DNA of 64,000 nucleotides from a virus: positions 1 through 64,000 of IMG/VR virus record IMGVR_UViG_3300013286_000010; one strand, written 5' to 3'. A program made the translations under genes and the position numbers. Below, piece after piece: positions 1-60,315 of the stretch. Position 1 is the first letter of the stretch. Each line of letters opens with the position of its first letter. Below the pieces are notes generated by a model that saw only the letters and a program-made list of their open reading frames with translations, was not told the origin of the DNA and searched no databases.

Positions 1-150
1 AAAGGTTGCATGGAATACTATCATCATAAAAAGATGAAGGGCCGTCCTGAAAAATCATTTACCGAAGAGTTGCGTAAAGAACTATGCGAGAAGTTGTTCA
101 ATCATTTCCGCGAAGATATTGTCAAAGACAAATATAAGTTAGGACAATGA
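1..150 (+). CDS. 3' end of a hypothetical protein (truncated by window edge)
   Basis: Open frame from base 1 (KGCMEYYHH...KYKLGQ) ending TGA 148-150, 1 nt before next ATG. Confidence 0.7.
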   Translation, partial: KGCMEYYHHKKMKGRPEKSFTEELRKELCEKLFNHFREDIVKDKYKLGQ

Positions 151-151
151 T

Positions 152-1117
152 ATGAGAATTAGAGAACTACTATCAGAAGGTGGAAATGTATTTGCAGGTA
201 AAACAACTGGCATTAGGCTAGAATATATTGAACCTACTCTTGCAGCATACTTTACAGAATTAAAACATATTTTTCCAAACAAAGCTGGTATTTTTAGTAA
301 ACAAAATTTTGTACCACTAGGGTCGGTTGGTAAGAAAGCAGTTAGCGGAGATATCGATCTAGGCGTTAGCGCAACTGATTTACTAGACAAAGCAATGAGC
401 GACGAGAGTATTGCAGCATGGGGAGTTGATCCCAAAGCAGTACAGGCAGAATTTGAAGCCCTGCAAAAGCGTGCCAGAACCAGTACACCAGAACAGCTAC
501 GCATGAAAGCGTTCCTAAAACAATTAACATTGTATATCAACAGTCATGCACCTAGCCTGTACTGTGATGAAAAGAAAGTTACTGATGGCAACATCTTTGG
601 CTTATTTCCACAGTTAACTGACAAAGGTGAACATGTAGGTAGCGGTGTTCAAATTGATTGGATGATCGGTGATCTAAATTGGTTAAAGTTTAGCTATCAC
701 TCTGCGGCATACCCAGAACAATCTAATGTTAAAGGGCTGCATCGTACACAGTTAATGTTGAGTGCATTCCAAGTAGCCAATTTAAGTTTCAATCATGTGG
801 CTGGCGTTAAGGATAAGGCAACAGGAGAAGTAATTGCCCGTGATCCAGACGATGCATTAAAAGTATTAGGTCAACGTTTGGGATTTAAGATTACACAAGC
901 CGATGCCGAAGACTATTACAAACTACACGCATTGTTAAAAGCTAGATTAAAACCTGAAGATTACAACACATTGTTGAATGTATACTTTAAAATTTTAGAT
1001 AGCACTCGTGCAGATATTCCGGACGACATGCAGGACGAATGGCGTAAGCGCAAGGATGCACTAGGCCTAACTGGCAAGTTCCTCCCGGACAATTCAGCAT
1101 TAAAGGTGAGACAATAA
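152..1117 (+). CDS. Pol-beta-superfamily nucleotidyltransferase with putative capsid-targeting leader
   Basis: hG-S...D-x-D motif (LGSVGKKAVSGDIDL), third Asp in VQIDWM; N-terminus MRIRELLSE. Confidence 0.75.
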   Translation: MRIRELLSEGGNVFAGKTTGIRLEYIEPTLAAYFTELKHIFPNKAGIFSKQNFVPLGSVGKKAVSGDIDLGVSATDLLDKAMSDESIAAWGVDPKAVQAEFEALQKRARTSTPEQLRMKAFLKQLTLYINSHAPSLYCDEKKVTDGNIFGLFPQLTDKGEHVGSGVQIDWMIGDLNWLKFSYHSAAYPEQSNVKGLHRTQLMLSAFQVANLSFNHVAGVKDKATGEVIARDPDDALKVLGQRLGFKITQADAEDYYKLHALLKARLKPEDYNTLLNVYFKILDSTRADIPDDMQDEWRKRKDALGLTGKFLPDNSALKVRQ

Positions 1118-2961
1118 TGAGCGGCGTAGCAGGTGCAGATCGAGTTAAAAGCAGATTAGACTTTCAACAGTTTCTCGCTTCTTATCAACATTTACTGGGA
1201 CAGTTCCCGGGCTTTGTCAGCATGAAGCCAAGTGGTAGTTATAATAGCAATCCAGACAAACAAGACTTTGGTGACATTGACTTAATCGTACATATCCAAA
1301 GCGAAAAGGATAAGGCAACACTAAAGAAAGAACTTCAAGCGTTCTTTATGAAACAACCCGAGACTGTTATTGTTCCGTTCAGTAGTGCCAAACATGCTGG
1401 TAAGCGTACATACAATGCAGGTGAATTAGTCAGTGTTCGCTTCCATGATGATGCACTGGGCTACAGCGCACAAATCGATAACATTGTAGCATTGGATCAT
1501 TTGGAAGCAGGATTCAAACAGCAATTCTTAGACATGCCCGCAGAAATACAAGGACTGGTCTTGGGATTAGTTAAGATCTCTACTATCGAAACCGAGCCTG
1601 CTATCTTATTCCAAAAGTTAGGTATCAAAGCACAACCACAATTAGAACCTGATCAAGAATACGAGTTTAATTTAAGCGGAGTTGAATTGCAACTGCGCAA
1701 GGTCACTTACGAACCAGGTACATTCAAACAAGTTGGCAGAGACATAATCTGGAGTAGTAGGAATTACGACGACCTACAGAAGTTATTATATCAATACGAT
1801 TTGAATACCAACTTTGACAGTTTATTACAACAGGCTAAACAAAACATACGCAACCCACGTAGTAATCAACGTATGCAAGGTGTATTCAGCAGTATGATCA
1901 GCGTTAAGAGCGGCGAAGTCGGAACTCAAAAAGGTGCAGACAAAGAGGCAGCGTTGGCTAGAGTACAACAGGCATTTGGTGAATCTCGTAGATCAATATT
2001 TAGATCGTTGATGGAAAGTAATAATAAAACTGTTGCATTTGCATTTGGACGATTTCAACCTCCGACAATCGGACACGAACTATTGATTGTTGCTGTTAAA
2101 GAGGCCGCTGCTCAAGCAGGTGCCGATCATGTCATTTATGTTTCTAAAACACAGGATGCTAAAACTAACCCATTAGACATCGGAACTAAAATGGCATACT
2201 TACAAAAGATGTTCCCGGGAACAAACTTTGTAGCAGCCGATGCAACTGTAAGAACACCAGTTGAAGCAATCAAACATTTAAATCAAAAGTATAATGGGTT
2301 AATTTGGGTTGCAGGTTCGGATCGTTTGCCTGTATTCACAAAGTTGGCAAATGACTATAACGGTAAAGAATATCAGTATCAAAATATACAGGTCATTTCT
2401 TCCGGGGCACGAGATCCCGATTCAGAAGGAACTGAAGGCATGAGTGGTACAAAGATGCGTGCTGCGGCTTTGGAAGATAACTTGCAGGAATTTATGCAAG
2501 GACTACCAGGAAATATAAGTGAGCAAGATGCTATGAAATTAATGAACTTAATAAAACAAGGTATGCAAAAACCTGTCAAAGCAGCACCTGGCCCTAAATT
2601 GCCTAACACAACTGAAGCGACATTTAAGAAAAGTCCTTATGGTCGTACTGCCGCTAGCCAACAGCGTGCTAAAGATTTATTAAATCCTCCAAAGCCGCCA
2701 GAGCCAAAGAAAGATGAACCAGTTGCAGAAAAGATGATGCCAGCAAGTAATTTTGCAGGAACTCCTAAAAACAAATTAGGTTCAGCAGGACAATTAAAAG
2801 GCAATATGAAGCGTCCAGCAAGAGCAGGTGACCTGGTAGGTAGTGCTGAAGAAAGCCGAATTGTTAAAGGCGTTCCAATCAGTGAAGATGTTCAAAACAT
2901 CATGGACGCATTGATCAATAAGATTATATTCAATGAAGCAGTATCGAATAAGCGTAAATGA
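1117..2961 (+). CDS. Fusion: Pol-beta-fold nucleotidyltransferase + HxGH (cytidylyltransferase-like) nucleotidyltransferase + basic tail
   Basis: SGSYNSNPDKQDFGDIDL and AQIDNI in N-half; FGRFQPPTIGH, GSDR and MSGTKMR motifs in C-half. Confidence 0.75.
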   Translation: MSGVAGADRVKSRLDFQQFLASYQHLLGQFPGFVSMKPSGSYNSNPDKQDFGDIDLIVHIQSEKDKATLKKELQAFFMKQPETVIVPFSSAKHAGKRTYNAGELVSVRFHDDALGYSAQIDNIVALDHLEAGFKQQFLDMPAEIQGLVLGLVKISTIETEPAILFQKLGIKAQPQLEPDQEYEFNLSGVELQLRKVTYEPGTFKQVGRDIIWSSRNYDDLQKLLYQYDLNTNFDSLLQQAKQNIRNPRSNQRMQGVFSSMISVKSGEVGTQKGADKEAALARVQQAFGESRRSIFRSLMESNNKTVAFAFGRFQPPTIGHELLIVAVKEAAAQAGADHVIYVSKTQDAKTNPLDIGTKMAYLQKMFPGTNFVAADATVRTPVEAIKHLNQKYNGLIWVAGSDRLPVFTKLANDYNGKEYQYQNIQVISSGARDPDSEGTEGMSGTKMRAAALEDNLQEFMQGLPGNISEQDAMKLMNLIKQGMQKPVKAAPGPKLPNTTEATFKKSPYGRTAASQQRAKDLLNPPKPPEPKKDEPVAEKMMPASNFAGTPKNKLGSAGQLKGNMKRPARAGDLVGSAEESRIVKGVPISEDVQNIMDALINKIIFNEAVSNKRK

Positions 2962-3196
2962 TGTTCCGCAAGACAGCGGCGATGATGCATATCTAGCACC
3001 CGAAGATCCTATTCATGCTCTAAAAGCAGTTAGTATTATGGGCGGATTAGGTGGGCAACAGCGTCTTGCAGAATACAATGCTACATTAAGACCAGTAGTT
3101 GCGGGCAACAATAAAGGGCAAATACAACGCGAACAGAACATACGTCCTGGCACCGATGCGTGGTTTAAACTTTGGTTTGGACAAAATAATAAATAA
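2933..3196 (+). CDS. hypothetical protein
   Basis: 87-aa ORF filling the gap between neighbours, same strand. Confidence 0.65.
   Translation: MKQYRISVNDVPQDSGDDAYLAPEDPIHALKAVSIMGGLGGQQRLAEYNATLRPVVAGNNKGQIQREQNIRPGTDAWFKLWFGQNNK
3190..3195 (+). promoter_or_regulatory. late-promoter-like TAAATA
   Basis: ATAAATA 8 nt upstream of Dps ATG; similar to T4 late consensus TATAAATA. Confidence 0.5.
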
Positions 3197-3202
3197 TATA
3201 TC

Positions 3203-3646
3203 ATGGATAAATTAATTCAACTTACTCGCATTGGTTTTGGCACAACTTTTAGTTTTTATGTAAAAGTTCATTCTTTTCACTGGAACGTAGAGGGCAGTGA
3301 TTTCTACGAATATCATAAACTGTTTGAAGAAATCTACACAGAAGTCTACGGTGCAATAGACCCCTACGCAGAAAATGTGCGTAAATTAGGGGGATACATT
3401 CCTACTAGTTATCATAACCTCAGCATGTTAACCAAGATCGAAGACGAAGATCGTGTGCCCAACAAAGACGAAATGATACAAGAATTGTTACAAGACAGTG
3501 AGCGTATACAGATTGTTCTCAAGAAAAACTACGATGCTGCTGAAGCTGCGGGTGAACACGGGCTTTCAAACTTCCTTGCCGAAAGGCTTGACAACCATAA
3601 AAAACATGCATGGTTCCTGCGTGCTAGTTTAAAAGGATCAATGTAA
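3203..3646 (+). CDS. dps: Dps/ferritin-like DNA-protection protein
   Basis: HSFHWNVEG..F..YHKLFEE.Y and D..AE ferroxidase motifs, C-terminal KHAWFL. Confidence 0.9.
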   Translation: MDKLIQLTRIGFGTTFSFYVKVHSFHWNVEGSDFYEYHKLFEEIYTEVYGAIDPYAENVRKLGGYIPTSYHNLSMLTKIEDEDRVPNKDEMIQELLQDSERIQIVLKKNYDAAEAAGEHGLSNFLAERLDNHKKHAWFLRASLKGSM

Positions 3647-4017
3647 TGCGAGCTAAAGATTTTGTTAACGAAGTTAGAGGTGATGGTAAGATGCATCCTC
3701 ATATGGACAACGCTAACCAAGGCGCTGTTCGTATGCGTGATATCGGTGGATACGATCGTACCTATCACCTAAACCGTATTTGGATGGCCGCTGCAATGGC
3801 TGATGGTAAGAGTGCAAAAGCTGTTGATATGGATAGTGCCAGTTTTGTCGAAAAGTATAATGTGGCATTTCCTTACACTGATGCAGAACACTTGATGATA
3901 TTGGCTGCTATGGCCACTATTCCAACTGATAGCCAAGAATTAACCAAACGTGGTAAAAGTAAAGAACCGGATGATACTTATACAGTAAGTCCCGTAGCAA
4001 ATTGGATGAAGAAATGA
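3646..4017 (+). CDS. hypothetical protein with putative capsid-targeting leader
   Basis: TAATG coupling; N-terminus MRAKDFVNE. Confidence 0.75.
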   Translation: MRAKDFVNEVRGDGKMHPHMDNANQGAVRMRDIGGYDRTYHLNRIWMAAAMADGKSAKAVDMDSASFVEKYNVAFPYTDAEHLMILAAMATIPTDSQELTKRGKSKEPDDTYTVSPVANWMKK

Positions 4018-6125
4018 ACAACGAATTTAAAAAAGTAAAATCAAATGGCGAAACACGATTCGTGTTAGAATTCTCCGACGGTGGATCAACAAGTGCAGGC
4101 AGTATAGCTAGCGTAGAAAAACCACTAGGTGAACTACAGCGTAGAGCTGAACCGCCAAAACCTCGCAACTTCGTTGCCAAGAATGCCAAGATGGGCGGGG
4201 CTGGTCAGCACAAGGATAAGAAGAAGGCTGATAAGCAGGGTGATGTTAAACATCGTAAACCATTTGCTGAAGGCGATGTTGTTCCACTAGGTAAAAAGCA
4301 TCGTGGAGATTTAGAGGATACACGCTCATGCCCCAAGTGCGGTGGCGACTTACAAGGTGGAACATACATGGGACACCGAGTAAAAGTGTGCCATCCTTGT
4401 TCACAAGTTTATCTACCACCTAACAGCGGTATTGACCAAAAGGGTAATAAAATAGGCGAGCAAGGTGTGGCGGAAGGCTCTGAACAATATGATGAAATTA
4501 GTGACAAAGCATTCGATGAAGGATATGCTGGGTATTCTTATCGCAACATTTATCCCAAAGGCACTAGAGAATATGAGGAATATCACGAAGGGTGGTACGA
4601 CGGTCGCTTGGCTTTTGAAAAAGCAAACGACTACGAAAGCGACTTTTATATTTCAAGACCGGAGCAAGGTGTGGCGGAAGGTGAAAAGACTATGAGTCGC
4701 GCTGCCAAAGGTAATGAGAAATATGGCAAGGACGGCATGAAGGCACTAGCCAAGGCAGGTCGTGAAGGTGCTAGCGATGAGAAGCTAGATAAGATTCGAG
4801 ACAAGTATGACAACTATAATGAAGAAGCCAAACACGGTCTCTACTACAATGTAAACAAACGCAAGGCTGCTGGAACCAGTAGACCCGCATCAAGTCCCAA
4901 AGCACCCACAGCACAGGCGTGGAAGGATGCAGCCAAAACTGCTAAAAAAGAAAGTATAGCAGAGAGTGAAGGACGTTGTATGCAGTGCGGTATGAAAGAC
5001 TGCAAGTGTCCAGGTACCAGTTGCAAATGCAAACCTATTGCAGGTTGGGTACCGGGCAAAGGTTTCAAGAAAGCCACGGACGAAGCTGCCAATGCCGCAC
5101 AACAAGCTGCCATTGCAATTGCCAAAAAGAAAAAGCAAGGTGTAGAAGAAGAGTGGAGCAAGAAATACAAATCTAGTATCAACTGTAGTCATCCAAAAGG
5201 ATTCAGTCAAAAGGCTCACTGTGCCGGTAAGAAGAAGCACAATGAAAGTATGATGACAATGGAAGCGGTGTGCCCAGATTGCGGCATGTGCCAAACACAC
5301 GGCAATATTAGCGAGATTAAAAAAGGTGCTAAAGATTCAAATGGAGTTAGCAGTTGCTGGTCAGGCTATCATGCGGCTGGTACTAAAAAAGGCCGTAATG
5401 GTGGACAGGTTCGCAACTGTGTGCCCAACGAAGGTATAGCAGAAAATCCAGACTGGTACAATGACGAGGCAAATAGTATGTCTAGTAGTCAACTAAAAAG
5501 TCTATATAAACATGCAATGAAATTACGCCAAGCAGTTAAACGAATGCAGGCACAGGGTGATACATTAGAACCATGGCAACAGAGCAAAGTTACCAAAGCT
5601 GCTGATTATTTAGATGCTGTGTTCAATGCGGTGGACGACGAGCATGATATGGGCGAGCAGACTGAATTAGAAAGTGTAGGTATTCCATCATACGGCGTGG
5701 GCGGTTATCGCAATCGTGGCGATGATGAAAGACACGATCTAGATGATCCAGAACTACAACGTAATCGTCAAGAAGTCACATATTACAACATCACAATCGA
5801 CGGCAAACCTATTAATCCTGAACCAATCTTTGGTCGTAGTGCTACAATTGCATGGGGTAAGAAACATGCTGCCACTGGCGTGGATCTTTCCAACGCTATG
5901 ATATCTCCAGTTAAGTATACCGAAGATGCCTATATGGAATCACTGCAAAATATGTTAGAGCGTTCTGTGAGTCAAGCACAACATAACCTAATGGTAGGTG
6001 TTGCACACAATCCAGCATTTGCCCAAAAGGTAAAAGTTAAACGAGCTGTTGGACAAGAGTTTGCCAATGCAGATCAAGGTCACGACATTAGCAAACTACC
6101 AATCCGTGTTCCAAAAAAGAAATGA
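4014..6125 (+). CDS. multi-module putative polyprotein (head internal/cargo protein)
   Basis: Start probably ATG 4014 (ATGA overlap); about 13 short modules separated by E-ending linkers (EQGVAE x2, QGVEE, ESIAE, EGIAE, KPFAE). Confidence 0.75.
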   Translation: MNNEFKKVKSNGETRFVLEFSDGGSTSAGSIASVEKPLGELQRRAEPPKPRNFVAKNAKMGGAGQHKDKKKADKQGDVKHRKPFAEGDVVPLGKKHRGDLEDTRSCPKCGGDLQGGTYMGHRVKVCHPCSQVYLPPNSGIDQKGNKIGEQGVAEGSEQYDEISDKAFDEGYAGYSYRNIYPKGTREYEEYHEGWYDGRLAFEKANDYESDFYISRPEQGVAEGEKTMSRAAKGNEKYGKDGMKALAKAGREGASDEKLDKIRDKYDNYNEEAKHGLYYNVNKRKAAGTSRPASSPKAPTAQAWKDAAKTAKKESIAESEGRCMQCGMKDCKCPGTSCKCKPIAGWVPGKGFKKATDEAANAAQQAAIAIAKKKKQGVEEEWSKKYKSSINCSHPKGFSQKAHCAGKKKHNESMMTMEAVCPDCGMCQTHGNISEIKKGAKDSNGVSSCWSGYHAAGTKKGRNGGQVRNCVPNEGIAENPDWYNDEANSMSSSQLKSLYKHAMKLRQAVKRMQAQGDTLEPWQQSKVTKAADYLDAVFNAVDDEHDMGEQTELESVGIPSYGVGGYRNRGDDERHDLDDPELQRNRQEVTYYNITIDGKPINPEPIFGRSATIAWGKKHAATGVDLSNAMISPVKYTEDAYMESLQNMLERSVSQAQHNLMVGVAHNPAFAQKVKVKRAVGQEFANADQGHDISKLPIRVPKKK
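4458..4681 (+). repeat. 20-nt perfect direct repeat GAGCAAGGTGTGGCGGAAGG (4458-4477 and 4662-4681) encoding EQGVAEG
   Basis: Identical copies 204 nt apart; degenerate copy AGCAAGGTGTAGAAGAAG at 5134-5151. Confidence 0.9.
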
Positions 6126-6913
6126 AAATAAACGATTTATTAGAGTCAGACGACTACGAAATACATAACCAAGAAAAACTAGATCGAATATTGGTCAAGT
6201 TATGTGAGATGGTCATTGAAGCACAACAAGAAGATAGTGAATACTATGGTATGGTTGCTGCCGGTGTCCTCGATCCTGATAATAATTTAGCAGCTGGAGT
6301 AAATTATCCTCATGAAGAAGGCGGTCGTGTCCATGCAGAAAGAGCCGCAATGGAATTATATGAAAGCCAATATGGATCACCGGTTCCCAAAGGCAGCATC
6401 ATTATTACAACATTAAGTCCGTGTAATGAACACGCAGATCGAACAGCAGATAAGCGCCATGGCGAAAGTTGCACTGAACTAGTCAACAATTCTACTGTGC
6501 ATAAAGTATACTGCGGATACATGGATCCTAGTCAAGGTGACGACGAGCACGATGAGAGAACATTCACTTTAGAAGAAACTCGCAACCCTGCTATACGCGA
6601 GCTTTGCAAAAAGTTTGCAGATACATTCCTAGATGGTCATGTGTCTGAATCAGCAGCTTGGCATCGCAAGGCAGGCAAAAGTAAAACAGGTGGACTAAAC
6701 GATAAAGGCATTGCCAGCTATCGTAGAGAGCATCCCGGAAGTCACTTACAAAAAGCTGTAACTACTAAACCTAGTAAATTAAAACCCGGAAGTAAAGCTG
6801 CCAAACGCCGTAAATCATTCTGTGCTAGAATGGGCGGCAGTAAAGGTCCAATGAAAAAACCCAACGGTGAACCAACCCGTAAAGCCCTAGCATTGCGTAA
6901 GTGGAACTGTTAA
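6122..6913 (+). CDS. Zn-dependent cytidine-deaminase-like domain fused to a basic DUF6321-like domain
   Basis: HAE and SPC..C motifs; C-terminal AW.RK.GK...GGLN..G.ASY...RRKSFCARM...ALRKWNC; leader MKINDLLE; junction HVSE/SAAW. Confidence 0.75.
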   Translation: MKINDLLESDDYEIHNQEKLDRILVKLCEMVIEAQQEDSEYYGMVAAGVLDPDNNLAAGVNYPHEEGGRVHAERAAMELYESQYGSPVPKGSIIITTLSPCNEHADRTADKRHGESCTELVNNSTVHKVYCGYMDPSQGDDEHDERTFTLEETRNPAIRELCKKFADTFLDGHVSESAAWHRKAGKSKTGGLNDKGIASYRREHPGSHLQKAVTTKPSKLKPGSKAAKRRKSFCARMGGSKGPMKKPNGEPTRKALALRKWNC

Positions 6914-7107
6914 TGCGTATCTTTGAACTTGTAGAAAACTTTGCAGATGGTCGAAATCCCCAAGACAAGGGCGACAGCAAGAGACATGGCATCAATACCA
7001 AAGCCAGTGTAAGTAGTCTGCGTAAAACTGCCAAACAAGGTGGTCGCAAAGGACAATTAGCTCATTGGCTAGCCAATATGAAAGCTGGACGAGCAAAGAA
7101 GAAATAA
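6913..7107 (+). CDS. small basic protein with putative capsid-targeting leader
   Basis: TAATG coupling at 6911-6915; MRIFELVE/NFADG. Confidence 0.7.
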   Translation: MRIFELVENFADGRNPQDKGDSKRHGINTKASVSSLRKTAKQGGRKGQLAHWLANMKAGRAKKK

Positions 7108-7109
7108 AA

Positions 7110-7208
7110 TCAAGTGCCGATTTACCTTTAAGCCACATTGGCTGTACTACGAAAAAACAGGGAAAGCTCATAGTTAGGGGTCCTCGGATGCCCGGTTAAC
7201 CACTTGAC
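7110..7208 (-). ncRNA. candidate ~100-nt structured small RNA
   Basis: Terminal inverted repeat TCAAGTG (7110-7116)/CACTTGA (7201-7207), two internal hairpins, minus-strand TAAATA at 7213-7218 just upstream. Confidence 0.35.
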
Positions 7209-7212
7209 ATGA

Positions 7213-7228
7213 TATTTACCGATAAATA
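7213..7228. promoter_or_regulatory. back-to-back late promoters TATTTA-CCGA-TAAATA
   Basis: Same architecture as TATTTA-CCAA-TAAATA at 54140-54155. Confidence 0.55.
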
Positions 7229-7233
7229 TATCC

Positions 7234-7776
7234 ATGTATAACTTTATAAAACAACTACAAGAAGGTAGAGTAATTAAAAAATTAGAGCAGGTAACATTGC
7301 CCTATGCTCGTGACGGTCTTGGTCGTAGTCTAAGTAAAAAAGCAATAGATTATCATTATGGCAAATTATACGGCGGATATGTAACACGATTCAACGCCGG
7401 GGAGGGTGATCCAGATTTTAACGAAGCCGGTGCTTTCTTACACAGCATTTATTTCCCACAAATGCAGCCACCAAAAAATTCAAATCAACCTGCTGGTAAA
7501 TCTCTAGAATTTATCAACCAGCATTTTAAAAGTTTTGACAAGTTTAAAGAAACGTTTGAAAAAATTGCTATGGGCATACAGGGCAGCGGATGGGTCTATC
7601 TTGCCAAGAATGGAGAAATCAAAACTATCGTTAATCACCAAATCAAGAATGATATCATACTGCTAATAGACTGGTGGGAACACTCTTGGGTTCTGGATTA
7701 CCAAGCGGACAAGAAAGGTTATTTAAATAACCAATGGAAAATTATTAATTGGAATTTAATTAACGAAAGATTGTAA
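7234..7776 (+). CDS. sod: Fe/Mn superoxide dismutase
   Basis: LPY..., HYGK, FN.AG...H, GSGW and DWWEH motifs, four metal ligands retained; leader MYNFIKQLQE. Confidence 0.85.
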   Translation: MYNFIKQLQEGRVIKKLEQVTLPYARDGLGRSLSKKAIDYHYGKLYGGYVTRFNAGEGDPDFNEAGAFLHSIYFPQMQPPKNSNQPAGKSLEFINQHFKSFDKFKETFEKIAMGIQGSGWVYLAKNGEIKTIVNHQIKNDIILLIDWWEHSWVLDYQADKKGYLNNQWKIINWNLINERL

Positions 7777-8327: not shown

Positions 8328-8600
8328 ATGAGTAAAGCGTTTGGAGCCCCAGAGCAGGCCAAAATTAAACAAATCGTTGCAGAGGGAATGACGGTAATGC
8401 AGGAAATTCAAGACCTAACTGAAGGTCTCAACGAAACCATCAAAGCTGTAGCAGAAGAACTAGAAGTCAAGCCCAGTGTTATCAAGAAGGCAATTAAGAT
8501 TGCACAGAAAGATACATGGGATCAAGTGTTCCGCGAATTCGACGACTTGGAAACTATTGTGGATATCAGTGGTCACAGCTTCCGTCGTGAGGATCAATGA
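8328..8600 (+). CDS. dsDNA-binding protein, T4 DsbA/GapR-like
   Basis: 90-aa helical protein with I.AVAEEL...P.VIKKAIKIA pattern; strong SD AGGAG. Confidence 0.55.
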   Translation: MSKAFGAPEQAKIKQIVAEGMTVMQEIQDLTEGLNETIKAVAEELEVKPSVIKKAIKIAQKDTWDQVFREFDDLETIVDISGHSFRREDQ

Positions 8601-8893
8601 TCAAAATATTCAAGCCAACATTAGAATGGATCAAAAATGACTACCGTACTAATCCTTTTCGCTTCTGCATTGAGCTGCTTGCTTGGGGCATTAGTATCGG
8701 GTGTTCGATTACCATGGCTATTACAGTCCCGAATCCGCCCCTACTATCTCTCTATCCTATTTGGATCCTCGGCTGCGGTCTCTACGCTTGGGCTGCTTTT
8801 AGCCGGAAATCTTTTGGCATGCTGGCTAACTATATCCTGCTGGTTAGTATAGATTCTATTGGCCTAGTTAGAATGATGGCTAAATATTTTTAA
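8597..8893 (+). CDS. small membrane protein
   Basis: Three hydrophobic segments; ATGA coupling. Confidence 0.65.
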   Translation: MIKIFKPTLEWIKNDYRTNPFRFCIELLAWGISIGCSITMAITVPNPPLLSLYPIWILGCGLYAWAAFSRKSFGMLANYILLVSIDSIGLVRMMAKYF

Positions 8894-8895
8894 GA

Positions 8896-8951
8896 ATGGT
8901 ACGATCAACCATAAGTGATCAACAAGGTATGTGTATGCCGCAAATTACACA
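8896..8951 (+). promoter_or_regulatory. tandem H-type pseudoknot candidate in DNA polymerase leader
   Basis: ATGGT/ACCAT crossed by GATCA/TGATC; GGT/GCC crossed by TGTGTA/TACACA, abutting the SD. Confidence 0.45.
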
Positions 8952-8963
8952 AGGGAGAAAAAT

Positions 8964-11633
8964 ATGAGTTATGTCGATGCTCGGTGGGACCGAGAAAAGG
9001 ACATCGTTCAGGTTATTGAACGTGATCCAAAGAAAGGCAGGTTGTATCAAGAATACCCTGCAAAGTATATGTTCTATTACCCAGACCAACGGGGTAAGTA
9101 TAAATCCATTCACGGAGAGAATCTTTCAAAAGTTACAGCCCGTAATTGGAAAGAGTTCATTAAAGAACAGAAAATTCACAGCGCACACAAGCTATACGAA
9201 AGTGATATTAATCCAGTATTCCGTTGTCTAGAAGAAAATTATCTAGGTAAAGATGCCCCAAAACTAAATGTTGCGTTCTTCGACATTGAGGTGGACTTCG
9301 ATCCAGAACGTGGCTACAGCACTCCTGAAGATGCTTTCATGCCAATTACTGCTATCGCTGTTCACCTACAATGGTTAGATACGCTTGTTTGTCTTGCTGT
9401 GCCGCCAAAGACACTGACTATGGAACAGGCACAAGACCAAATCAAAGACTTTCCTAATACTATGTTGTTTGAAACAGAACACGAGATGTTAGATACTTTC
9501 CTAGATCTTATACAAGACAGTGATGTATTAAGTGGATGGAACAGCGAAGGCTTTGATATTCCATATACAGTAAATAGAGTAACAAAGGTCTTGAGTAAAG
9601 AGGATACACGTAGATTCTGTTTATGGGACCAAATGCCAAAGAAACGGGAGTACGAAAAGTATGGAAAAGCGGCTGTTACTTATGACCTTATTGGTCGTGT
9701 TCATCTGGACAGTCTCGAGTTGTACCGCAAGTACACCTATGAAGAACGCCACACCTACCGATTGGATGCAATCGGAGAGATGGAGGTAGGAGAATCTAAA
9801 ACTGTCTATGAAGGCACATTAGATCAACTATACAACAACGACTTCCGTAAGTTTATCGAATACAACAGGCAGGATACTGCACTGTTAGATAAACTAGATA
9901 AGAAACTAAAGTTCCTAGACCTTGCCTGCACCATCGCACACGAGAACACAGTGTTGCTACAGACTACAATGGGTGCTGTTGCAGTGACTGAACAGGCTAT
10001 TGTAAACGAAGCTCACCATCGTGGACTGATTGTTCCAAGTCGCCCCAAACGAGATGAGGATGCTAACAATCAGGCAGCAGGTGCATATGTTGCATATCCT
10101 AAAAAAGGATTACATGATTACATCGGTTCGATGGACATTAACAGTCTGTATCCTTCAGTGATTCGTGCCCTTAACATGGGTCCAGAAACAATTATTGGTC
10201 AGTTGCGTCAGGATTACACCAAGGCAGAAATTGATGCCAAGATTGCCAAAGGATCTAGCTTTGCGGCTGCATGGGAAGGTAAGTTCGGCAGTAACGAATA
10301 TGAATTTGTTATGGCAAAAGATCGAACTAACGATGTTATCATCGATTGGGAGAATGGCGAAACAGATGTAATGAGTGGCGCACAGATCTATGAACTGATC
10401 TTTGAAAGTAATAAACCTTGGATGTTAAGTGCTAATGGAACAATCTTTACACACGAACGCGAAGGTATTATTCCCGGTTTGTTAAAGCGTTGGTATGCTG
10501 AACGAAAAGAGATGCAGGCTAAACTAAAAGAATGTATCAAAGCGGAGAATAAAATTGAAGAAGAATATTGGGACAAACGTCAATTGGTTAAGAAAATTAA
10601 CCTCAATAGTTTATACGGTGCTATTCTTAATGCTGGTTGTCGTTTCTTTGATAACCGTATTGGTCAATCAACCACCCTTACAGGGCGTGGAATTGCCCGA
10701 CATATGGCTGCTAAAATCAATGAGGTTATCACCGGAGAATACGACCACGTTGGAAAATCAATCATCTACGGTGATACAGACTCTGCATATTTCAGTGCCT
10801 ACAATTCACTAAAGGTTGAAATTGCCAAAGGACAGATACCTTGGGATAAGAACACAGTGGTGCAACTGTATGACACTATTGCCGATGAAGTTAACAGTAC
10901 ATTCCCACAGTTCATGTCGGATGCACATCACTGTCCAAAGAGTCGTGGTGAAGTTATTAAAGCAGGACGTGAGATTGTTGCTATCAAAGGTCTGTTCATT
11001 ACCAAGAAGCGTTATGCAGTTCTTTATTACGATAAAGAAGGCAAGCGTAGTGACGTAGATGGCAAGCCAGGTAAGATTAAAGCCATGGGTTTGGATTTGA
11101 AGCGCAGTGATACTCCGGAATTTATGCAGAAGTTCTTGGAAGAAGTACTGACAAAAGTTCTAAATAATGCTCAAGAGTCAGAAATTCTAGAGATGATTAC
11201 AGAGTTTAGAACTGAATTTAAAGCCCGGCCAGGTTGGGAGAAAGGCAGTCCTAAACGAGCTAACAACATTGCCGAGTATCAAAAGAAAGAAGAAAAACAA
11301 GGCAAGGCCAATATGCCCGGACACGTTCGTGCTGCCATTAACTGGAATACATTAAAACGTATGAACGGCGACAAATATAGTCAACAAATTGTTGACGGTA
11401 TGAAAGTTATTGTCTGCAAGGTCAAGGCAAATCCATTGGGTTATACAAGTATTGCATATCCAGTTGATGAATTGCGTTTGCCAAAGTGGTTCCAAGAACT
11501 GCCATTTGATCATGCAGAAATGGAAGCTACCATTATCAATAACAAGCTAGATAACCTCATCGGTGTTCTAGACTGGGATCTTAATTCCACAACTGAAACA
11601 AATACATTTCACAGCTTATTCAGCTTTGACTAA
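8964..11633 (+). CDS. family B DNA polymerase (T4 gp43-like)
   Basis: Exo DIE, YN..D; Pol DINSLYPS, K..LNS.YG, YGDTDS, KKRY; start ATG 8964 after GGGAG. Confidence 0.97.
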   Translation: MSYVDARWDREKDIVQVIERDPKKGRLYQEYPAKYMFYYPDQRGKYKSIHGENLSKVTARNWKEFIKEQKIHSAHKLYESDINPVFRCLEENYLGKDAPKLNVAFFDIEVDFDPERGYSTPEDAFMPITAIAVHLQWLDTLVCLAVPPKTLTMEQAQDQIKDFPNTMLFETEHEMLDTFLDLIQDSDVLSGWNSEGFDIPYTVNRVTKVLSKEDTRRFCLWDQMPKKREYEKYGKAAVTYDLIGRVHLDSLELYRKYTYEERHTYRLDAIGEMEVGESKTVYEGTLDQLYNNDFRKFIEYNRQDTALLDKLDKKLKFLDLACTIAHENTVLLQTTMGAVAVTEQAIVNEAHHRGLIVPSRPKRDEDANNQAAGAYVAYPKKGLHDYIGSMDINSLYPSVIRALNMGPETIIGQLRQDYTKAEIDAKIAKGSSFAAAWEGKFGSNEYEFVMAKDRTNDVIIDWENGETDVMSGAQIYELIFESNKPWMLSANGTIFTHEREGIIPGLLKRWYAERKEMQAKLKECIKAENKIEEEYWDKRQLVKKINLNSLYGAILNAGCRFFDNRIGQSTTLTGRGIARHMAAKINEVITGEYDHVGKSIIYGDTDSAYFSAYNSLKVEIAKGQIPWDKNTVVQLYDTIADEVNSTFPQFMSDAHHCPKSRGEVIKAGREIVAIKGLFITKKRYAVLYYDKEGKRSDVDGKPGKIKAMGLDLKRSDTPEFMQKFLEEVLTKVLNNAQESEILEMITEFRTEFKARPGWEKGSPKRANNIAEYQKKEEKQGKANMPGHVRAAINWNTLKRMNGDKYSQQIVDGMKVIVCKVKANPLGYTSIAYPVDELRLPKWFQELPFDHAEMEATIINNKLDNLIGVLDWDLNSTTETNTFHSLFSFD

Positions 11634-11641
11634 AATATTTG

Positions 11642-11670
11642 TTGACATTTACTCTAAATCTAAATAAACT
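11642..11670 (+). promoter_or_regulatory. sigma70-type promoter
   Basis: TTGACA-17 nt-TAAACT (a TAAATA also overlaps at 11661-11666). Confidence 0.6.
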
Positions 11671-11687
11671 TATACAAAGGAAACATT

Positions 11688-12437
11688 ATGACATCAAACC
11701 CCATGCAAAGCATATTACAAGACATCGTTGCTCACACCAACAAACTAGGCTTTTTGAACATTGTAAAAATTACAGGTACAGAAGCTAAAACATTGATCGA
11801 CTCTATGGCAGATGACCGTAGCGTTATCATGTATGCAGAAACTACCAATCCACATCCCAACATGATTGGAACATTTGGTATGCCACAGCTTGAGAAACTT
11901 CGCTATCTAGTAGATGGTAAAGAATATCAAGAAGATGCTAAAATTGAAGTTGTCACAGGTCAACGCAACGGTGAAGAAATCCCAGTCGGTCTCCACTTTG
12001 AAAACAAAGACGGTGACTTCAAGAACGATTACCGTTTCATGAATCAAGATATTATCAACGAGAAATTGAAGACTGTCAAGTTCCGTGGCGTTAACTGGCA
12101 CGTTGAAGTTGCTCCTACAGTCAGTGCTGTACAGCGTTTCCAATTCCAAGCAGGTGCTAACACAGAGCACACAACATTCTTGGCTAAAACAGATGGCGAC
12201 AAATTGATCTTTACATTTGGTGATCAAGCTAGTCATGGTGGCGAGTTTGTATTTGCCACAGGCGTTACTGGTAAGATTACCAAAGCGTGGACATGGCCTG
12301 TTATGCCAGTGTTGAGCATTTTGAAGATTGCAGATGCTAACAATGCTAAAATTGGTTTTAGTAATGATGGCGCTATGCAGATTGAATTAGACAGCGGTCT
12401 TGCTACTTACAAATACATTATTCCAGCACAGGCATGA
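11688..12437 (+). CDS. sliding clamp (gp45/PCNA-like)
   Basis: ~250 aa, directly after polymerase, PCNA-like C-terminus GAMQIELDSGLATYKYIIPA. Confidence 0.6.
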   Translation: MTSNPMQSILQDIVAHTNKLGFLNIVKITGTEAKTLIDSMADDRSVIMYAETTNPHPNMIGTFGMPQLEKLRYLVDGKEYQEDAKIEVVTGQRNGEEIPVGLHFENKDGDFKNDYRFMNQDIINEKLKTVKFRGVNWHVEVAPTVSAVQRFQFQAGANTEHTTFLAKTDGDKLIFTFGDQASHGGEFVFATGVTGKITKAWTWPVMPVLSILKIADANNAKIGFSNDGAMQIELDSGLATYKYIIPAQA

Positions 12438-12805
12438 TAAAAGGGATATCCCAAGGCGGGCGTTATATTACGGTAACTGGAGGTAGTCCTTCCAACCCCT
12501 ATATTTCGCCTGGCAGTCAATCAGCAGGCATGATGCGCTATAATACCAACATGAATACTGTAGAAGTGTATGATGGGCAATCTTGGAAAGATATTAGTTC
12601 AAATTATGCCAACATATCATTAACTATGGAAGCAGAATCGTTGCTCGATTGGGCTCGTAAAAAGCGTGATGAAGAATTACAATACAAATCATTAGCCGAG
12701 AGTCATCCTGCTGTTAAAATTGCCATGGACAATTTAGAGAAGGCTAAACTACAATTAGATGCTACAATAATATTAAGTAAAGAACATGATACATCAACAA
12801 GTTAA
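12434..12805 (+). CDS. hypothetical protein
   Basis: ATGA-coupled ORF, 123 aa. Confidence 0.7.
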   Translation: MIKGISQGGRYITVTGGSPSNPYISPGSQSAGMMRYNTNMNTVEVYDGQSWKDISSNYANISLTMEAESLLDWARKKRDEELQYKSLAESHPAVKIAMDNLEKAKLQLDATIILSKEHDTSTS

Positions 12806-14417: not shown

Positions 14418-14418
14418 T

Positions 14419-14655
14419 ATGGCAACACGTAAAAAGAAAACAGATGTTATTATATCTGCTGATATTGCAGAAATGACAGGACCTAAAGTAGTCAAAGGTA
14501 ATCACTTAACAGTGACCACACACCCAGATGGTAGAACAGATTTAGCATGGGATGATGATGCATTGTTAGCAGAAGTCCAAGCAGCATTGGCTAGTGTAGG
14601 AATTAAACCAAAACGTAAAACAAAGTTAAAACAAGACGGCAACTTGGACAATTAA
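14419..14655 (+). CDS. hypothetical protein
   Basis: SD AGGAG, 78 aa. Confidence 0.7.
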   Translation: MATRKKKTDVIISADIAEMTGPKVVKGNHLTVTTHPDGRTDLAWDDDALLAEVQAALASVGIKPKRKTKLKQDGNLDN

Positions 14656-14659
14656 GCTA

Positions 14660-14688
14660 TTGACTCATACTATAAAACCTGCTACAAT
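14660..14688 (+). promoter_or_regulatory. sigma70-type promoter
   Basis: TTGACT-17 nt-TACAAT, 6 nt before ATG 14695 (possibly leaderless). Confidence 0.6.
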
Positions 14689-14694
14689 TAATTT

Positions 14695-15207
14695 ATGAAA
14701 CGTGATTACACAACTGGCGAAGCTGATAACATTCAATTCTTTATTGGTAAAGAAGTTGAGCATACACCTGCATTTGGAAAACTAACCTTGTTTGTTACAG
14801 GTATTCATTCCGCAGAGGAGATTGCCCTAAACTTAAATGGCGCAGAACATATCTTCTTTGGTGCTAATCACAGCTTTAATCCGCAAAATAATTTGGAATG
14901 GCAACGTTGGGAAACTATGATTGAATTCTTTTTACGTAAAGAATATTTGTGTAGTTTAGATATTCCAATGAGTGCTGTAGAAGAATTTAATGAAAACGGT
15001 CTTAACGATTACAATAACTTTATTCCGCAAATTCGTGTCCCAATTCCCTACATTAAATTGTGGAACTACAATACAATGATTAAAATTGATGATAAAGATT
15101 TTAATGCAACTAACCCAGGTGTATGGTCACACAGTCTACATGCACTTAAAGACCGTAGTAAGTTTACGGACTGGGCACAATATAAAAATGACAAGGTAAT
15201 TAAATGA
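14695..15207 (+). CDS. hypothetical protein in DNA-modification cluster
   Basis: 170-aa ORF, G.EVEHTP..G..TLFV, KIDD..F...NPGVW. Confidence 0.75.
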   Translation: MKRDYTTGEADNIQFFIGKEVEHTPAFGKLTLFVTGIHSAEEIALNLNGAEHIFFGANHSFNPQNNLEWQRWETMIEFFLRKEYLCSLDIPMSAVEEFNENGLNDYNNFIPQIRVPIPYIKLWNYNTMIKIDDKDFNATNPGVWSHSLHALKDRSKFTDWAQYKNDKVIK

Positions 15208-15371
15208 TTAATCCTAAACTAACAAAAACAACTCCACAAACAAGCGAAGAGCGACTGTTTAAGTTACTAGAAGGTATTGACTGGAAGCTATGGGAAATAT
15301 ATAATATGATGAAAGACAATCTCCCAGAAAAGGCAAATACTAAAAAATCTGTAAAGAAAGTAAACGAATGA
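15204..15371 (+). CDS. 55-aa hypothetical protein (absent from ORF track)
   Basis: ATGA overlaps at both ends; MINPKLTK...IDWKLWEIYN...KKVNE. Confidence 0.65.
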   Translation: MINPKLTKTTPQTSEERLFKLLEGIDWKLWEIYNMMKDNLPEKANTKKSVKKVNE

Positions 15372-15721: not shown

Positions 15722-15755
15722 ACTTTTTATCAACTTCCAATTAAGGAAAAACAAA

Positions 15756-15983: not shown

Positions 15984-15984
15984 A

Positions 15985-18670: not shown

Positions 18671-18675
18671 ATGTA

Positions 18676-18704
18676 TTGACAAGCCTAAATAAACTCTATA
18701 TACT
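18676..18704 (+). promoter_or_regulatory. sigma70-type promoter
   Basis: TTGACA-17 nt-TATACT upstream of queE. Confidence 0.75.
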
Positions 18705-18725
18705 ATACTTATCTCAAGGATTAAC

Positions 18726-23605: not shown

Positions 23606-23609
23606 AACT

Positions 23610-59678: not shown

Positions 59679-59686
59679 TATAAATA
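59679..59686 (+). promoter_or_regulatory. T4-type late promoter TATAAATA
   Basis: Perfect consensus upstream of ORF 59716. Confidence 0.7.
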
Positions 59687-59715: not shown

Positions 59716-60315
59716 ATGAAGATTGAACAGTTAATTAAAGCAGTAAATGAATCCGCAAGTAATGAGGATTTTAATGCAATGTCTCAAAAAGCTAATGCTA
59801 TCAAACAGCAACAGGGTGTTACAAAACCAACAGGTACGGTTCTTCCTTTTCCTAAAACTACCACAGCTACTCCTGGTCCTGCGGGAACTACAGGTCCAAG
59901 TGCTTTAGATAAATTTAAGCAGGGAGCTAGCGCAGTTGGTTCTGCTATTAAAACAGGTGCCCAAGCTGTAGCTAAAAACGCTCCAGCAGTTGGTCAAGGG
60001 GTTAGCAATGTTGCCCAAGGGTTAGGCACAGCAGGTACAGGTATTGTTAAAGGTGCTGGAGATATTGCCAGTCAAGCAGTTGGTGGCGCAACACAAGCAG
60101 TCGGTGCCGGTCTAGGTGGTATTGTTCATGGATACAAAGCTGCTCGTGGTGGACAACAATTTGGCGGAGGTGGTACTGCTGGAACTCCTAGTTCGGCAGG
60201 TGCTCCAAGTACACCTAGTTCTGCAGGTGCCGCAGCAGGCGGTAATGACGAGATGGATCAGTTAAGATCTACACTACAGACAATGGATCAAAGACTACGC
60301 AGGGCAGGTATTTAA
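59716..60315 (+). CDS. Gly/Ala-rich protein with putative capsid-targeting leader
   Basis: MKIEQLIKAVNE; 11-mer amphipathic G/A repeats; late promoter. Confidence 0.7.
   Translation: MKIEQLIKAVNESASNEDFNAMSQKANAIKQQQGVTKPTGTVLPFPKTTTATPGPAGTTGPSALDKFKQGASAVGSAIKTGAQAVAKNAPAVGQGVSNVAQGLGTAGTGIVKGAGDIASQAVGGATQAVGAGLGGIVHGYKAARGGQQFGGGGTAGTPSSAGAPSTPSSAGAAAGGNDEMDQLRSTLQTMDQRLRRAGI

Follow-up and report, generated by a model that had tools for sequence, protein, structure and literature searches.

Leaders resembling T4 capsid-targeting propeptides suggest packaging of late-cluster enzymes by an uncultured jumbo phage

Results

Leaders and head-assembly genes

In an uncultured T4-like jumbo phage of the Rak2/GAP32 kind we found a set of otherwise unrelated proteins carrying short N-terminal leaders which, judged from their sequences and from comparison with relatives, are likely to be T4-type capsid-targeting propeptides. 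The tag of this late gene cluster is nearly identical to the head-loading tag of T4, so that its cargo, among it a polymerase-like enzyme, a deaminase and a superoxide dismutase (SOD), is probably packed into the virion. This would widen the cargo of a mechanism known from T4. The capsid-targeting reading of the original prediction was supported, and those of its sequence-level predictions that were tested all held. The window analysed here comprises the first 64,000 nucleotides of the 83-kb contig (IMG/VR record IMGVR_UViG_3300013286_000010), and individual genes and promoter cores given as ranges within it lie on the + strand.

The contig encodes a T4-type portal, a gp21-type prohead protease and a gp23 capsid protein (Pfam Portal_T4, Peptidase_S77 and Gp23). 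The Peptidase_S77 homologue (contig position 66967-67596) showed 34% identity to T4 gp21 and retained the catalytic motifs ..HP.. and GVSSRG, and the capsid protein contained L-A-E|S at residue 41, at about the cleavage place of T4 gp23 (L-T-E|A).

All six N-termini named in the original prediction were found as described, namely MRIRELLSE (152), MRAKDFVNE (3646), MKINDLLES (6122), MRIFELVEN (6913), MYNFIKQLQE (7234) and MKIEQLIKAVNE (59716). The leader at 6913 begins at an ATG that lies four codons downstream of the GTG opening its ORF (6901). A seventh leader had been overlooked: MNNEFKKVKSNGETRFVLE, with 19 residues, opens the 4014 ORF, where ATG 4014 is the most likely start of a TTG ORF at 4002, and it equals the T4 IPI propeptide in length and type of ending. 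The leaders of T4 itself, read from AF158101, are MKTYQEFIAE in IPII and IPIII, MKTFKEF... in IPI, MELITELFDE in Alt, MAKINELLRE in gp24 and MLKEQLIAE in gp22. The leaders found here resemble these sequences, MKTYQEFIAE among them, with family members including MRAKEFIAEA and MKSFVEFITE. The premise that T4 internal proteins carry a capsid-targeting sequence (CTS) of about 10 aa, ending in E and cut by gp21, agreed with these T4 leaders and with the literature, according to which gp21 cleaves after L/I-X-E, the first 10 residues of IPIII are enough for packaging, and the targeting sequence is the sole part shared by T-even internal proteins (PMC9026906, PMC3012670). Among hundreds of homologues of our proteins the leaders mostly ended in [L/I/V]-x-E right at the conserved domain, and this combination of a variable middle residue with a fixed E is, at the level of sequence, the known gp21 cleavage motif. 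The leaders lay outside the folds of the nucleotidyltransferase (NTase; AlphaFold) and the SOD (alignment).

The pattern underlying the original prediction, ^M[KR]xx[DEQ][LF][LIV], is post hoc and fitted 5 of the 72 N-termini, where 0.045 were expected. A second motif (E at position 5 or 6, then [FL][ILFTV]) was defined from T4 proteins alone; it occurred at the N-termini of 4 of 72 ORFs in the window (0.43 expected, P ~9e-4) and of 11 of 386 in the complete 355-kb genome of a relative, G002 (1.7 expected, P ~2e-6). As had been claimed, proteins of the replication block lack the leader: none of the replication and nucleotide-modification genes at 8328-27002 matched either motif.

Proteins behind the leaders

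The gene at 152..1117 encodes a 321-aa family-X-polymerase-like NTase, assigned by AlphaFold and fold search (top folds Pol beta, Z 9.2, and ASFV Pol X, Z 9.1), with a GS...D.D motif and an invariant third Asp. Its 9-aa leader (152-178) places L-S-E immediately before an invariant GGNVF and is predicted to be disordered (pLDDT 90.8 for the model, <50 for residues 1-8). Leaders of 9-133 aa were present in 31 of 39 orthologues, every one ending in [LIV]-x-E; all 19 distinct leaders showed this ending before GGNVF, with eight different P2 residues. The eight leaderless orthologues start with MGGNVF, that is, exactly at the boundary, and three orthologues were fused to an upstream module through an LSE|, VSE| or LME| joint. 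The contig-truncated gene ahead of the NTase, of which only the 3' end is present (1..150), encodes the C-terminal part of a leader-bearing family of about 125 aa ('MLLNEFFGK / MKLYEFF'). Members of this family lie upstream of the NTase in relatives and start with MKLYEFF, MLLNEFFG or MNLFEFF, and the product of 1..150 matched the stretch immediately preceding ..RLME|GGNVF, the joint of the fused orthologue in L013.

Downstream, a 614-aa protein (1117..2961) without an N-terminal leader combines an NTase-like N-terminal half with a cytidylyltransferase/NMNAT-like half (Pfam CTP_transf_like, residues 309-449; phrog cytidyltransferase). Its modules meet at a conserved L-x-E (L298-M299-E300, window 2008-2016), represented in orthologues by LLE, LME, LNE or LRE, and in L026 the gene is split exactly at this joint. 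It is followed by an 87-aa conserved protein (MKQYRI..., 2933..3196) with syntenic orthologues in at least 12 loci, which showed neither a clear leader or L-x-E boundary nor a Pfam or PHROG match. A 147-aa Dps/ferritin-like protein (3203..3646; Pfam Ferritin 1.7e-20, NCBIfam Dps models below cut-off) also lacked a leader, its orthologues starting with MDKL.., MEDL.. or MEQL.., and it is therefore not predicted to be leader-targeted. The absence of leaders from three genes of the block (1117, 2933, 3203) speaks against the packaging reading.

Homologue alignment identified the 123-aa protein at 3646..4017 (leader 3646-3672, 9 aa) as putative internal-protein-like cargo, for which the predicted structure had a pLDDT of 66.8. 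The family has 416 homologues; 116 of the 120 among those listed begin with M-R-A-[KRN]-[ED]-F-[IV]-x-E-[A/S/T/G], where I/V7 and E9 are fixed and position 8 is hypervariable. The next ORF (4014..6125) encodes a 703-aa Lys/Cys-rich protein, read from its homologues and linkers as a cargo polyprotein, in which the linkers QGVAE|G, SIAE|S, GVEE|E and GIAE|N recur between small modules. Its homologues in L014, L005, L013, L012 and L034 carry different modules with the same G-[VI]-A-E linker between them, and the WSKKYKSSINCSHP module stands directly behind a short leader in L005 and L010.

The 263-aa protein at 6122..6913 is a RibD/dCMP-type zinc deaminase with a C-terminal basic DUF6321 (Pfam dCMP_cyt_deam_1, DUF6321), whose HAE and PC...C align with the RibD deaminase domain. 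In its leader, MKINDLLE, residues 6-8 form L-L-E; orthologues starting with MKILEF, MRLKEF or MKLREF keep the N-terminal core, and the position of L-x-E is not conserved, a further point against the packaging reading. A very basic 64-aa peptide (6913..7107) consists of the leader MRIFELVE and a module NFADG..., which follows ELKE| within a 610-aa ORF in L012, and IKE| and E| in G002 and L010, respectively. The leaders had been said to precede unrelated folds; this was borne out for NTase, deaminase and SOD, and the fourth example, a 'basic peptide', is better described as a module of polyproteins in relatives.

The 180-aa Fe/Mn SOD (7234..7776; Pfam Sod_Fe_N, Sod_Fe_C) carries a 10-aa leader ending in L-Q-E|G. 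It aligned to FeSOD 8avm from residue 18 on and retained all four metal ligands; the leader of the family reads MYNFIK..[LIV]-x-E-G with P2 free. Far from the cluster, between recombination genes and baseplate/portal genes, ORF 59716..60315 encodes a 199-aa Pro/Thr-rich basic protein with leader ending V-N-E|S, and the syntenic G002 ORF in the same position (133700) starts with MKISQLVQFSLDE. Mature cargo was basic, with a pI of 11.5 for the 6913 product, 9.1 for SOD and 10.1 for the 59716 product.

Promoter motifs

The late-type motifs reported earlier were confirmed in position. ATAAATA at 3189..3195, a T4-late-promoter-like core 8 nt upstream of the Dps-like ATG, is a candidate late promoter of the tightly packed genes 3203-7107, as suggested by sequence. 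A second such core (7222..7228) lies 6 nt upstream of the SOD ATG, and the canonical T4 late-promoter octamer TATAAATA (59679..59686) lies 30 nt upstream of ORF 59716. ATAAATA occurred at 15 sites in the contig, 13 of them 5-78 nt upstream of an ORF start, and the full octamer had only two copies in the window against 9.3 expected. The claim that clean sigma70 promoters mark the replication block stood in part: the best + strand matches (8279, 11642, 14660, 15277, 18676) were located in the replication/modification block, while the total number of matches did not exceed that of shuffled sequences. In G002 the leader ORFs were scattered and tended to lie behind late-promoter cores; their association with late transcription units was a trend only (7/12 vs 133/374, P = 0.10). 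A gp55-like ORF at 54233 on the contig was recognised by eye only and had no Pfam match.

Leaders in the virion proteome of a cultured relative

The proposed comparison of N-termini with virion mass spectrometry was made on the cultured Pseudomonas jumbo phage PA5oct, a member of the wider Rak2-like group with a Peptidase_S77 gene, for which 93 virion proteins were reported by ESI-MS/MS (PMC7318152). Motif-bearing ORFs were enriched among them (9/19 vs 84/426, P = 0.008). The SOD homologue EST35_0261 (39% identity), with an N-terminal extension ending SIAE|A, is annotated as an ESI-MS/MS virion protein, the leader ORFs EST35_0150, 0203, 0237 and 0238 are likewise positive, and ORFs starting with MKINDIITE and MKIKDILVE are flagged as virion-associated. 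The list also includes likely contaminants (FtsH, enzymes), and we thus regard it as supportive evidence, not as proof. NTase and the 123-aa family were absent from PA5oct, and its proteome paper does not discuss leaders, processing or SOD (PMC7318152). The jumbo coliphage phAPEC6 showed no clear set of comparable leaders, which counts against the packaging reading.

Discussion

Possible function of the leaders

We propose that the leader genes would be transcribed late, along with the head genes, and that their first 8-19 encoded residues would form a short amphipathic segment, M-[K/R]-x-x-[E/D]-[F/L]-[I/L/V], which would bind the assembling scaffolding core, thereby enclosing the protein in the prohead. 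The gp21-type serine protease would then cut after the Glu of the terminal [L/I/V]-x-E of each leader, and polyproteins would be cut at their G-[V/I]-A-E and L-x-E joints as well. Cleavage would free basic mature proteins that remain with the packaged DNA, namely the Pol X-like NTase, the RibD-type deaminase, the Fe/Mn SOD, a 114-aa internal protein and small basic peptides. As a further step, the cargo might be ejected together with the DNA and be active ahead of any phage gene expression, as are T4 IPI-III and Alt.

The leaders might instead be prohead-protease propeptides on proteins that are not delivered effectors and act in the particle or during assembly only. SOD and basic peptides could protect or condense packed DNA or be core/scaffold parts, and the cargo could in that case be broken down or expelled ahead of DNA packaging or in its course, as are the fragments of T4 gp22, gp67 and gp68. 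Scaffold/core proteins of the same phage do share this type of N-terminus (MLDAFKQLVE at contig 67613, MLLREFI at 65527 and, from an internal Met of the ORF at 65925, MSTKFEQLLDLLVNE), as do T4 gp24 and gp22; the polyprotein would yield many small peptides comparable to T4 internal peptides, and the Dps-like gene and SOD suggest DNA protection over host take-over. We nevertheless consider this explanation improbable. Folded and apparently active enzymes, with motifs or ligands kept in NTase, SOD and deaminase, appear unlikely as mere scaffold, the T4 precedents with such a leader (IPI-III, Alt) are ejected (PMC9026906), and the SOD homologue of PA5oct is annotated in mature virions.

It is very unlikely that the shared N-termini are a by-product without a sorting role, reflecting a generic amphipathic helix or a translation-initiation bias (A/T-rich start, Lys or Arg at position 2). 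Starts with MK or MR are indeed frequent in the contig, the short and common [LIV]-x-E falls within the first 28 residues of many of its ORFs, and the first codons of several late genes could be constrained by the near absence of a 5' leader. Against this, the T4-derived motif was about 10-fold commoner at N-termini than at internal positions, and the hydrophobic P3, free P2 and invariant P1 Glu coincided exactly with the domain boundary irrespective of leader length. The same motif recurred inside fused orthologues at their joints, where effects of the start codon are no explanation, and the codons differ between leaders, indicating that selection acts on the peptide.

Recognition of the tag by a modifying enzyme, as in RiPP-like systems with one maturase for many precursors, is hardly credible: a QueE-like radical-SAM gene is present at 18726 (assigned from its N-terminal motif only), but it belongs to a 7-deazaguanine block 11 kb away, and the leaders match T4 capsid-targeting/propeptide sequences ending in the gp21 motif, show no Cys, Ser or Thr pattern of the kind usual in modified cores, and in G002 are dispersed and tend to lie behind late-promoter cores.

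Comparison with known systems

The capsid-targeting reading places our leaders closest to those of T4 internal proteins, with the same core and ending in T4 MKTYQEFIAE|A and in MRAKEFIAE|A, MKSFVEFITE|G and MRAKDFVNE|V, with a 19-aa version as in IPI, and with a T4-type protease and head genes on the contig. As in T4, the cargo proteins have nothing else in common, are for the most part basic and differ from one relative to the next. Unlike the T4 internal proteins, the cargo consists mostly of recognisable enzymes instead of small inhibitors, and is also strung in polyproteins with G-[VI]-A-E linkers; the leaders have 8-19 aa, and the commonest form is one residue shorter than the T4 CTS.

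T4 Alt is a virion-packaged ADP-ribosyltransferase from which gp21 removes a 7-residue N-terminal propeptide (PMC9026906). This enzyme in the head is a parallel to the packaging predicted here, and its N-terminus MELITELFDE is similar to MLLTELFN.. and MLLSELFH.. among the NTase leaders. The catalytic folds differ, being Pol X-like NTase, SOD and deaminase in our phage, and Alt has the feature that its C-terminus is also cut. Phages of the phiKZ type show a cleavage logo of the S/A/G-X-E type. In phiKZ, 201phi2-1 and SPN3US, a diverged gp21 homologue cleaves many ejection and inner-body proteins of the head behind the Glu of a short motif, and the propeptides are thought to aid incorporation (PMC9026906). 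These propeptides are long and the phages are not close relatives, whereas both leader and motif are T4-type in the phage described here.

Short N-terminal leaders on unrelated proteins

All six N-termini named in the original prediction, those of the ORFs at 152, 3646, 6122, 6913, 7234 and 59716, were found, and we identified a seventh leader of 19 residues on an ORF that is listed from TTG 4002 and whose likeliest start is ATG 4014, beginning MNNEFKKVKSNGETRFVLE. Based on Pfam, fold search and pI, the predicted cargo identities (deaminase, SOD, basic peptide and NTase) were right or close. The N-terminal pattern proposed earlier occurred at 5 of 72 N-termini in the window against 0.045 expected. 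Since that pattern had been drawn from the window, we used instead an independent motif taken from T4 proteins only, in which position 5 or 6 is Glu and the next two residues are [FL][ILFTV]. This T4-only motif matched 4/72 N-termini in the window, where 0.43 would be expected from internal positions (P ~9e-4), and 11 of the 386 N-termini of a complete relative contig, G002 (1.7 expected, P ~2e-6). None of the replication and nucleotide-modification genes at 8328-27002 matched either motif.

The leaders were encoded by differing codons (e.g. AGA ATT AGA GAA CTA CTA versus CGT ATC TTT GAA CTT GTA), which shows that the peptide is what is conserved; for the same reason a role as DNA-level recombination handles was ruled out. 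Signal peptides were ruled out as well, given the charge of the leaders and their lack of a hydrophobic core.

Conservation at the boundary between leader and domain

The strongest evidence for the proposed capsid-targeting reading was conservation at the boundary between leader and cargo. Among 39 orthologues of the NTase (ORF 152) from related contigs, 31 carried leaders, ranging from 9 to 133 residues. These comprised 19 distinct leaders, including MRIKELLTE, MKSFVEFITE, MITFKEFITE, MRITELLSYLTE, MLLSELFHHKKKLIE and MLLTELFNVLTKPINE, and all 19 ended in [L/I/V]-x-E, with 8 different middle residues, followed by an invariant GGNVF. The 8 orthologues without a leader began MGGNVF, precisely at the boundary, and in three contigs an upstream 125-aa gene was fused to the NTase with the joint LSE/GG, VSE/GG or LME/GG (a slash marks the boundary here and below).

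Leaderless orthologues might be explained by phages that have no protease of the type of gp21, the T4 prohead protease, but this was ruled out by contig G006, which encodes one. This contig represents a smaller T4-like phage with a Peptidase_S77 gene and an NTase orthologue without leader (locus L041). Seven neighbouring ORFs of L041 (6505-8639 and 14221-18482) carried other leaders, MKLTEAKLKALILE... and MKITNQQLKQIIREEL..., also containing [LI]-x-E, which may be another version of the loading tag. Both kinds of orthologue have GGNVF as their predicted mature N-terminus (window 152-178; L030, L035 and L041 among the relatives). It would result from cleavage after Glu in the forms with leader and from Met removal in the MGGNVF forms, and for the enzyme it may be important that its N-terminal Gly is free.

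The 123-aa family (ORF 3646) had 416 metagenome homologues. Among the 120 listed, 116 began M-R-A-[KRN]-[ED]-F-[IV]-x-E plus a small residue, with Glu9 invariant and position 8 hypervariable; MRAKEFIAEA occurred several times, its EFIAEA being common to T4. SOD leaders, taken from 120 listed homologues of 3362 matches to the whole SOD (ORF 7234), followed the form MYNFIK..[LIV]-x-E-G, in which the free position was occupied by Q, A, T, S, V, L, N, G or K. The 64-aa module at 6913, which starts NFADG..., was preceded by ELVE/ in the window, ELKE/ in a 610-aa ORF (L012), IKE/ in G002 and E/ in L010. Comparable joints were found inside proteins: the 614-aa protein at 1117 had no N-terminal leader, the joint of its two modules read LLE, LME, LNE or LRE in orthologues, and in one contig the gene was split at this L-x-E joint. 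The polyprotein at 4014 and its relatives contained varying small modules with G-[VI]-A-E between them. Its QGVAE linker was repeated at the protein level. Deaminase (ORF 6122) orthologues kept the N-terminal core of the leader (MKILEF, MRLKEF, MKLREF), and the L-x-E position was not conserved.

A second group of ORFs with leaders was located at 299981-316862 of G002, with the N-termini MRAKEFTINI, MKTFKDYLRE/A, MKIHHLLNE/T, MRAYEIFLED and MRIHHIID. ATAAATA, the T4 late-promoter core, lay no more than 43 nt upstream in four of the five, at exactly 6 nt in three, and was not found near MRAYEIFLED. The counterpart of this region in the phage described here falls outside the 83-kb contig.

Cargo proteins

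For the NTase no sequence match was found in Pfam, PHROG or PDB. Its AlphaFold model had a pLDDT of 90.8, with values below 50 only at residues 1-8. The best fold matches were Pol beta (Z 9.2) and ASFV Pol X (Z 9.1, rmsd 3.5 over 164/176 residues); TdT, Pol lambda and Pol mu were also matched, and other NTases scored lower (Z 5-6.7). The TM-score was only ~0.4 and identity ~11%, and the tentative placement in family X came from the fold search. Family X members have a palm and thumb of the Pol beta type and three catalytic carboxylates. Residues G57-S58, D67, D69 and D169 were invariant in 19 orthologues.

In the SOD both Pfam domains exceeded the cut-off, Sod_Fe_N at 31.3 bits and Sod_Fe_C at 82.7 bits. 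It aligned to the FeSOD 8avm from residue 18 and kept all four metal ligands (His, His, Asp, His); in the second sphere, two His of the KHH motif were replaced (KLY). In both NTase and SOD the leader was thus separable from the cargo fold, as indicated by the disordered residues 1-8 and the orthologues starting at the boundary in the former, and by the alignment from residue 18 in the latter.

The deaminase was assigned to the cytidine/dCMP type (dCMP_cyt_deam_1, 34.6 bits against a Pfam cut-off of 25) with a C-terminal DUF6321. Its HAE and PC-x14-C aligned to the RibD deaminase domain 2hxv, the motifs expected of a CDA-fold zinc deaminase. DUF6321 covers residues 185-261 of the deaminase (window 6122-6913) and is basic; in PHROGs it forms the C-terminal end of many phage proteins of 99-928 aa that differ in their other parts. 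This domain could be a DNA-binding tail of head-internal proteins. The mature proteins were mostly basic (SOD pI 9.1), as expected of DNA-associated head proteins, and the 64-aa peptide at 6913 had a pI of 11.5. The 123-aa protein gave a poor AlphaFold model (pLDDT 66.8, pTM 0.38), and its family had no relative among cultured phages.

Head-assembly genes and affiliation of the phage

The window comprises the initial 64 kb of an IMG/VR viral contig of 83,092 bp, for which CheckV estimated a completeness of 23%. Just beyond the window the contig encodes a Portal_T4 portal (contig 63778-65511, Pfam 1e-110), followed by a gp21-type prohead protease, Peptidase_S77 (contig 66967-67596, Pfam 5e-26), and a Gp23 major capsid protein (contig 68723-69904, Pfam 6e-97). 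Such a set of T4-type prohead serine protease, portal and capsid protein is expected where head-internal proteins are processed by gp21 as in T4. The protease shared 34% identity with T4 gp21, and the ..HP.. and GVSSRG motifs were aligned and kept. Because the capsid protein was 67-70% identical to those of Sinorhizobium phage Phosso, Vibrio phage 2.275.O, Cronobacter GAP32, Pectobacterium CBB and Serratia BF, we assigned the phage to the Rak2/GAP32-like jumbo group. Related contigs reached 354 kb, G002 (354,680 bp) being rated complete. A megablast search of 50,697 phage records with the initial 9 kb gave no match. Within the baseplate and tail-fibre block the window also encodes a 4297-aa ORF (31944-44837, minus strand), which may be the counterpart of gp245, a 382-kDa virion protein of the jumbo coliphage phAPEC6 whose gene adjoins the baseplate wedge.

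Late-type promoter motifs

The late-type motifs noted in the leader block were present, with ATAAATA at 3189 and 7222 and TATAAATA at 59679 before the ORF at 59716. On the 83-kb contig ATAAATA occurred at 15 sites, of which 13 sit 5-78 nt upstream of an ORF start; such sites precede 3203, 7234 and several structural genes. The site before 3203 could serve as promoter for the packed genes 3203-7107. The complete octamer of T4 late promoters, TATAAATA, was found in 2 copies in the window (24937 and 59679) against 9.3 expected from shuffles, and appears to be avoided outside promoters. Regarding the clean sigma-70 promoters ascribed to the replication block, the best sigma-70-like sites did lie there, but their total count was not above that of shuffles. 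For G002, leaders and late transcription units were associated as a trend only (P = 0.10), in a test limited by crude gene calls.

Several ATAAATA motifs end only 5-8 nt before the ATG (motif/start at window 3189/3203, 7222/7234, 31631/31626 on the minus strand and 48728/48723 on the minus strand, and at contig 65515/65527), and for many late-type genes of G002 the spacing is exactly 6 nt. Provided that transcription begins a few bases downstream, as it does in T4, such late mRNAs would be nearly without 5' leader and without Shine-Dalgarno sequence.

Virion proteomics of cultured relatives

The comparison of leader motif and virion mass spectrometry proposed with the original prediction could be run in part on the cultured Pseudomonas jumbo phage PA5oct (MK797984), which encodes a Peptidase_S77 and in which an ESI-MS/MS note marks 93 proteins from purified particles (PMC7318152). 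Using two fixed patterns, 19 PA5oct ORFs were picked before the MS notes were seen; 9 of them were positive, compared to 84 of 426 other CDS (one-sided Fisher P = 0.008). Positives included MKINDIITE/G, which adjoins the portal gene, MKIKDILVE/S and MFLKDVKITE/S. Among the picked but MS-negative ORFs were primase, a polymerase subunit and ClpA, chance catches of loose patterns. The PA5oct virion list includes likely contaminants, and we therefore regard the enrichment as support, not proof. EST35_0261, an SOD homologue with 39% identity, carried the N-terminus MNDSIKKYISIAE/A, ending in SIAE, and was flagged ESI-MS/MS.

Three adjacent PA5oct genes, EST35_0237-0239 (156341-158178), were all virion MS-positive, and the first two begin with CTS-like leaders (CTS, the T4 capsid-targeting sequence). 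This points to a cluster of genes for internal proteins which, being in a cultured phage, could serve as a test system. A census of phAPEC6, for which 62 virion proteins are listed (PMC7247149), revealed no obvious set of such leaders and was uninformative for this clade; in the MIJ3 paper just four bands were analysed.

Possible payload and comparison with the T4 system

From these analyses we infer that leader-bearing proteins would be packaged, cut and ejected in this uncultured phage. A broader reading is possible, though we hold it tentatively and consider it doubtful as a whole: a vast clade of uncultured jumbo T4-like phages, with metagenome homologue clusters in the hundreds to thousands, might use CTS and L-x-E as a plug-in loader, by which any module behind [LIV]-x-E, single or in polyproteins, is loaded, cut free and delivered. 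The phage described here would then deliver a prepared set of damage-control enzymes that work ahead of any phage transcript, namely an SOD, a nucleotide deaminase, an NMNAT-like enzyme and a Pol X-like enzyme for gap filling or end addition. A parallel may exist in large eukaryotic viruses, among them ASFV, which encode a Pol X that serves in DNA repair. SOD, a Dps-like gene, the Pol X-like enzyme and the NMNAT-like module would fit damage control of incoming DNA or counter-defence equally, and the cargo may act either in the host or within the particle.

If correct, a T4-like leader plus [L/I/V]-x-E at a domain boundary would be a rule predicting capsid-borne proteins of uncultured T4-like phages, and dozens of hypothetical proteins would become candidate first-minute effectors. 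Unusual cargo would also be named (Pol X-like enzyme, SOD, deaminase) that is testable in cultured relatives such as PA5oct. Leaders and linkers could further find use in loading large capsids with foreign proteins, a purpose for which the T4 CTS already serves.

Loading of varied proteins via the CTS is a known idea for T4-like phages, and according to a review of T4 head assembly the CTS may be a general route for this in such phages (PMC9026906). In the literature searched, no paper dealt with CTS leaders of Rak2-like jumbo phages or with the cargo types described here. In T-even internal proteins the CTS is the sole common part (PMC3012670). Residues 1-10 of IPIII are enough for packaging, positions 4 and 7 matter in targeting and positions 8 and 10 in processing, and gp21 cleaves after L/I-X-E (PMC9026906). 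In the T4 record AF158101 the leaders are MKTYQEFIAE/A for IPII and IPIII and MKTFKEFTSTTTPVSTITE/A for IPI, and the N-termini of Alt, gp22 and gp24 read MELITELFDE, MLKEQLIAE and MAKINELLRE. Every feature of the T4 CTS system that can be tested on sequence was found, and the leader system probably works like that of T4. The N-terminal leaders of about 10 residues resemble the T4 CTS, family leaders including MRAKEFIAEA, MKSFVEFITE and MITFKEFITE. The leader ends, hydrophobic at P3, free at P2 and always Glu at P1, agree with the specificity published for gp21.
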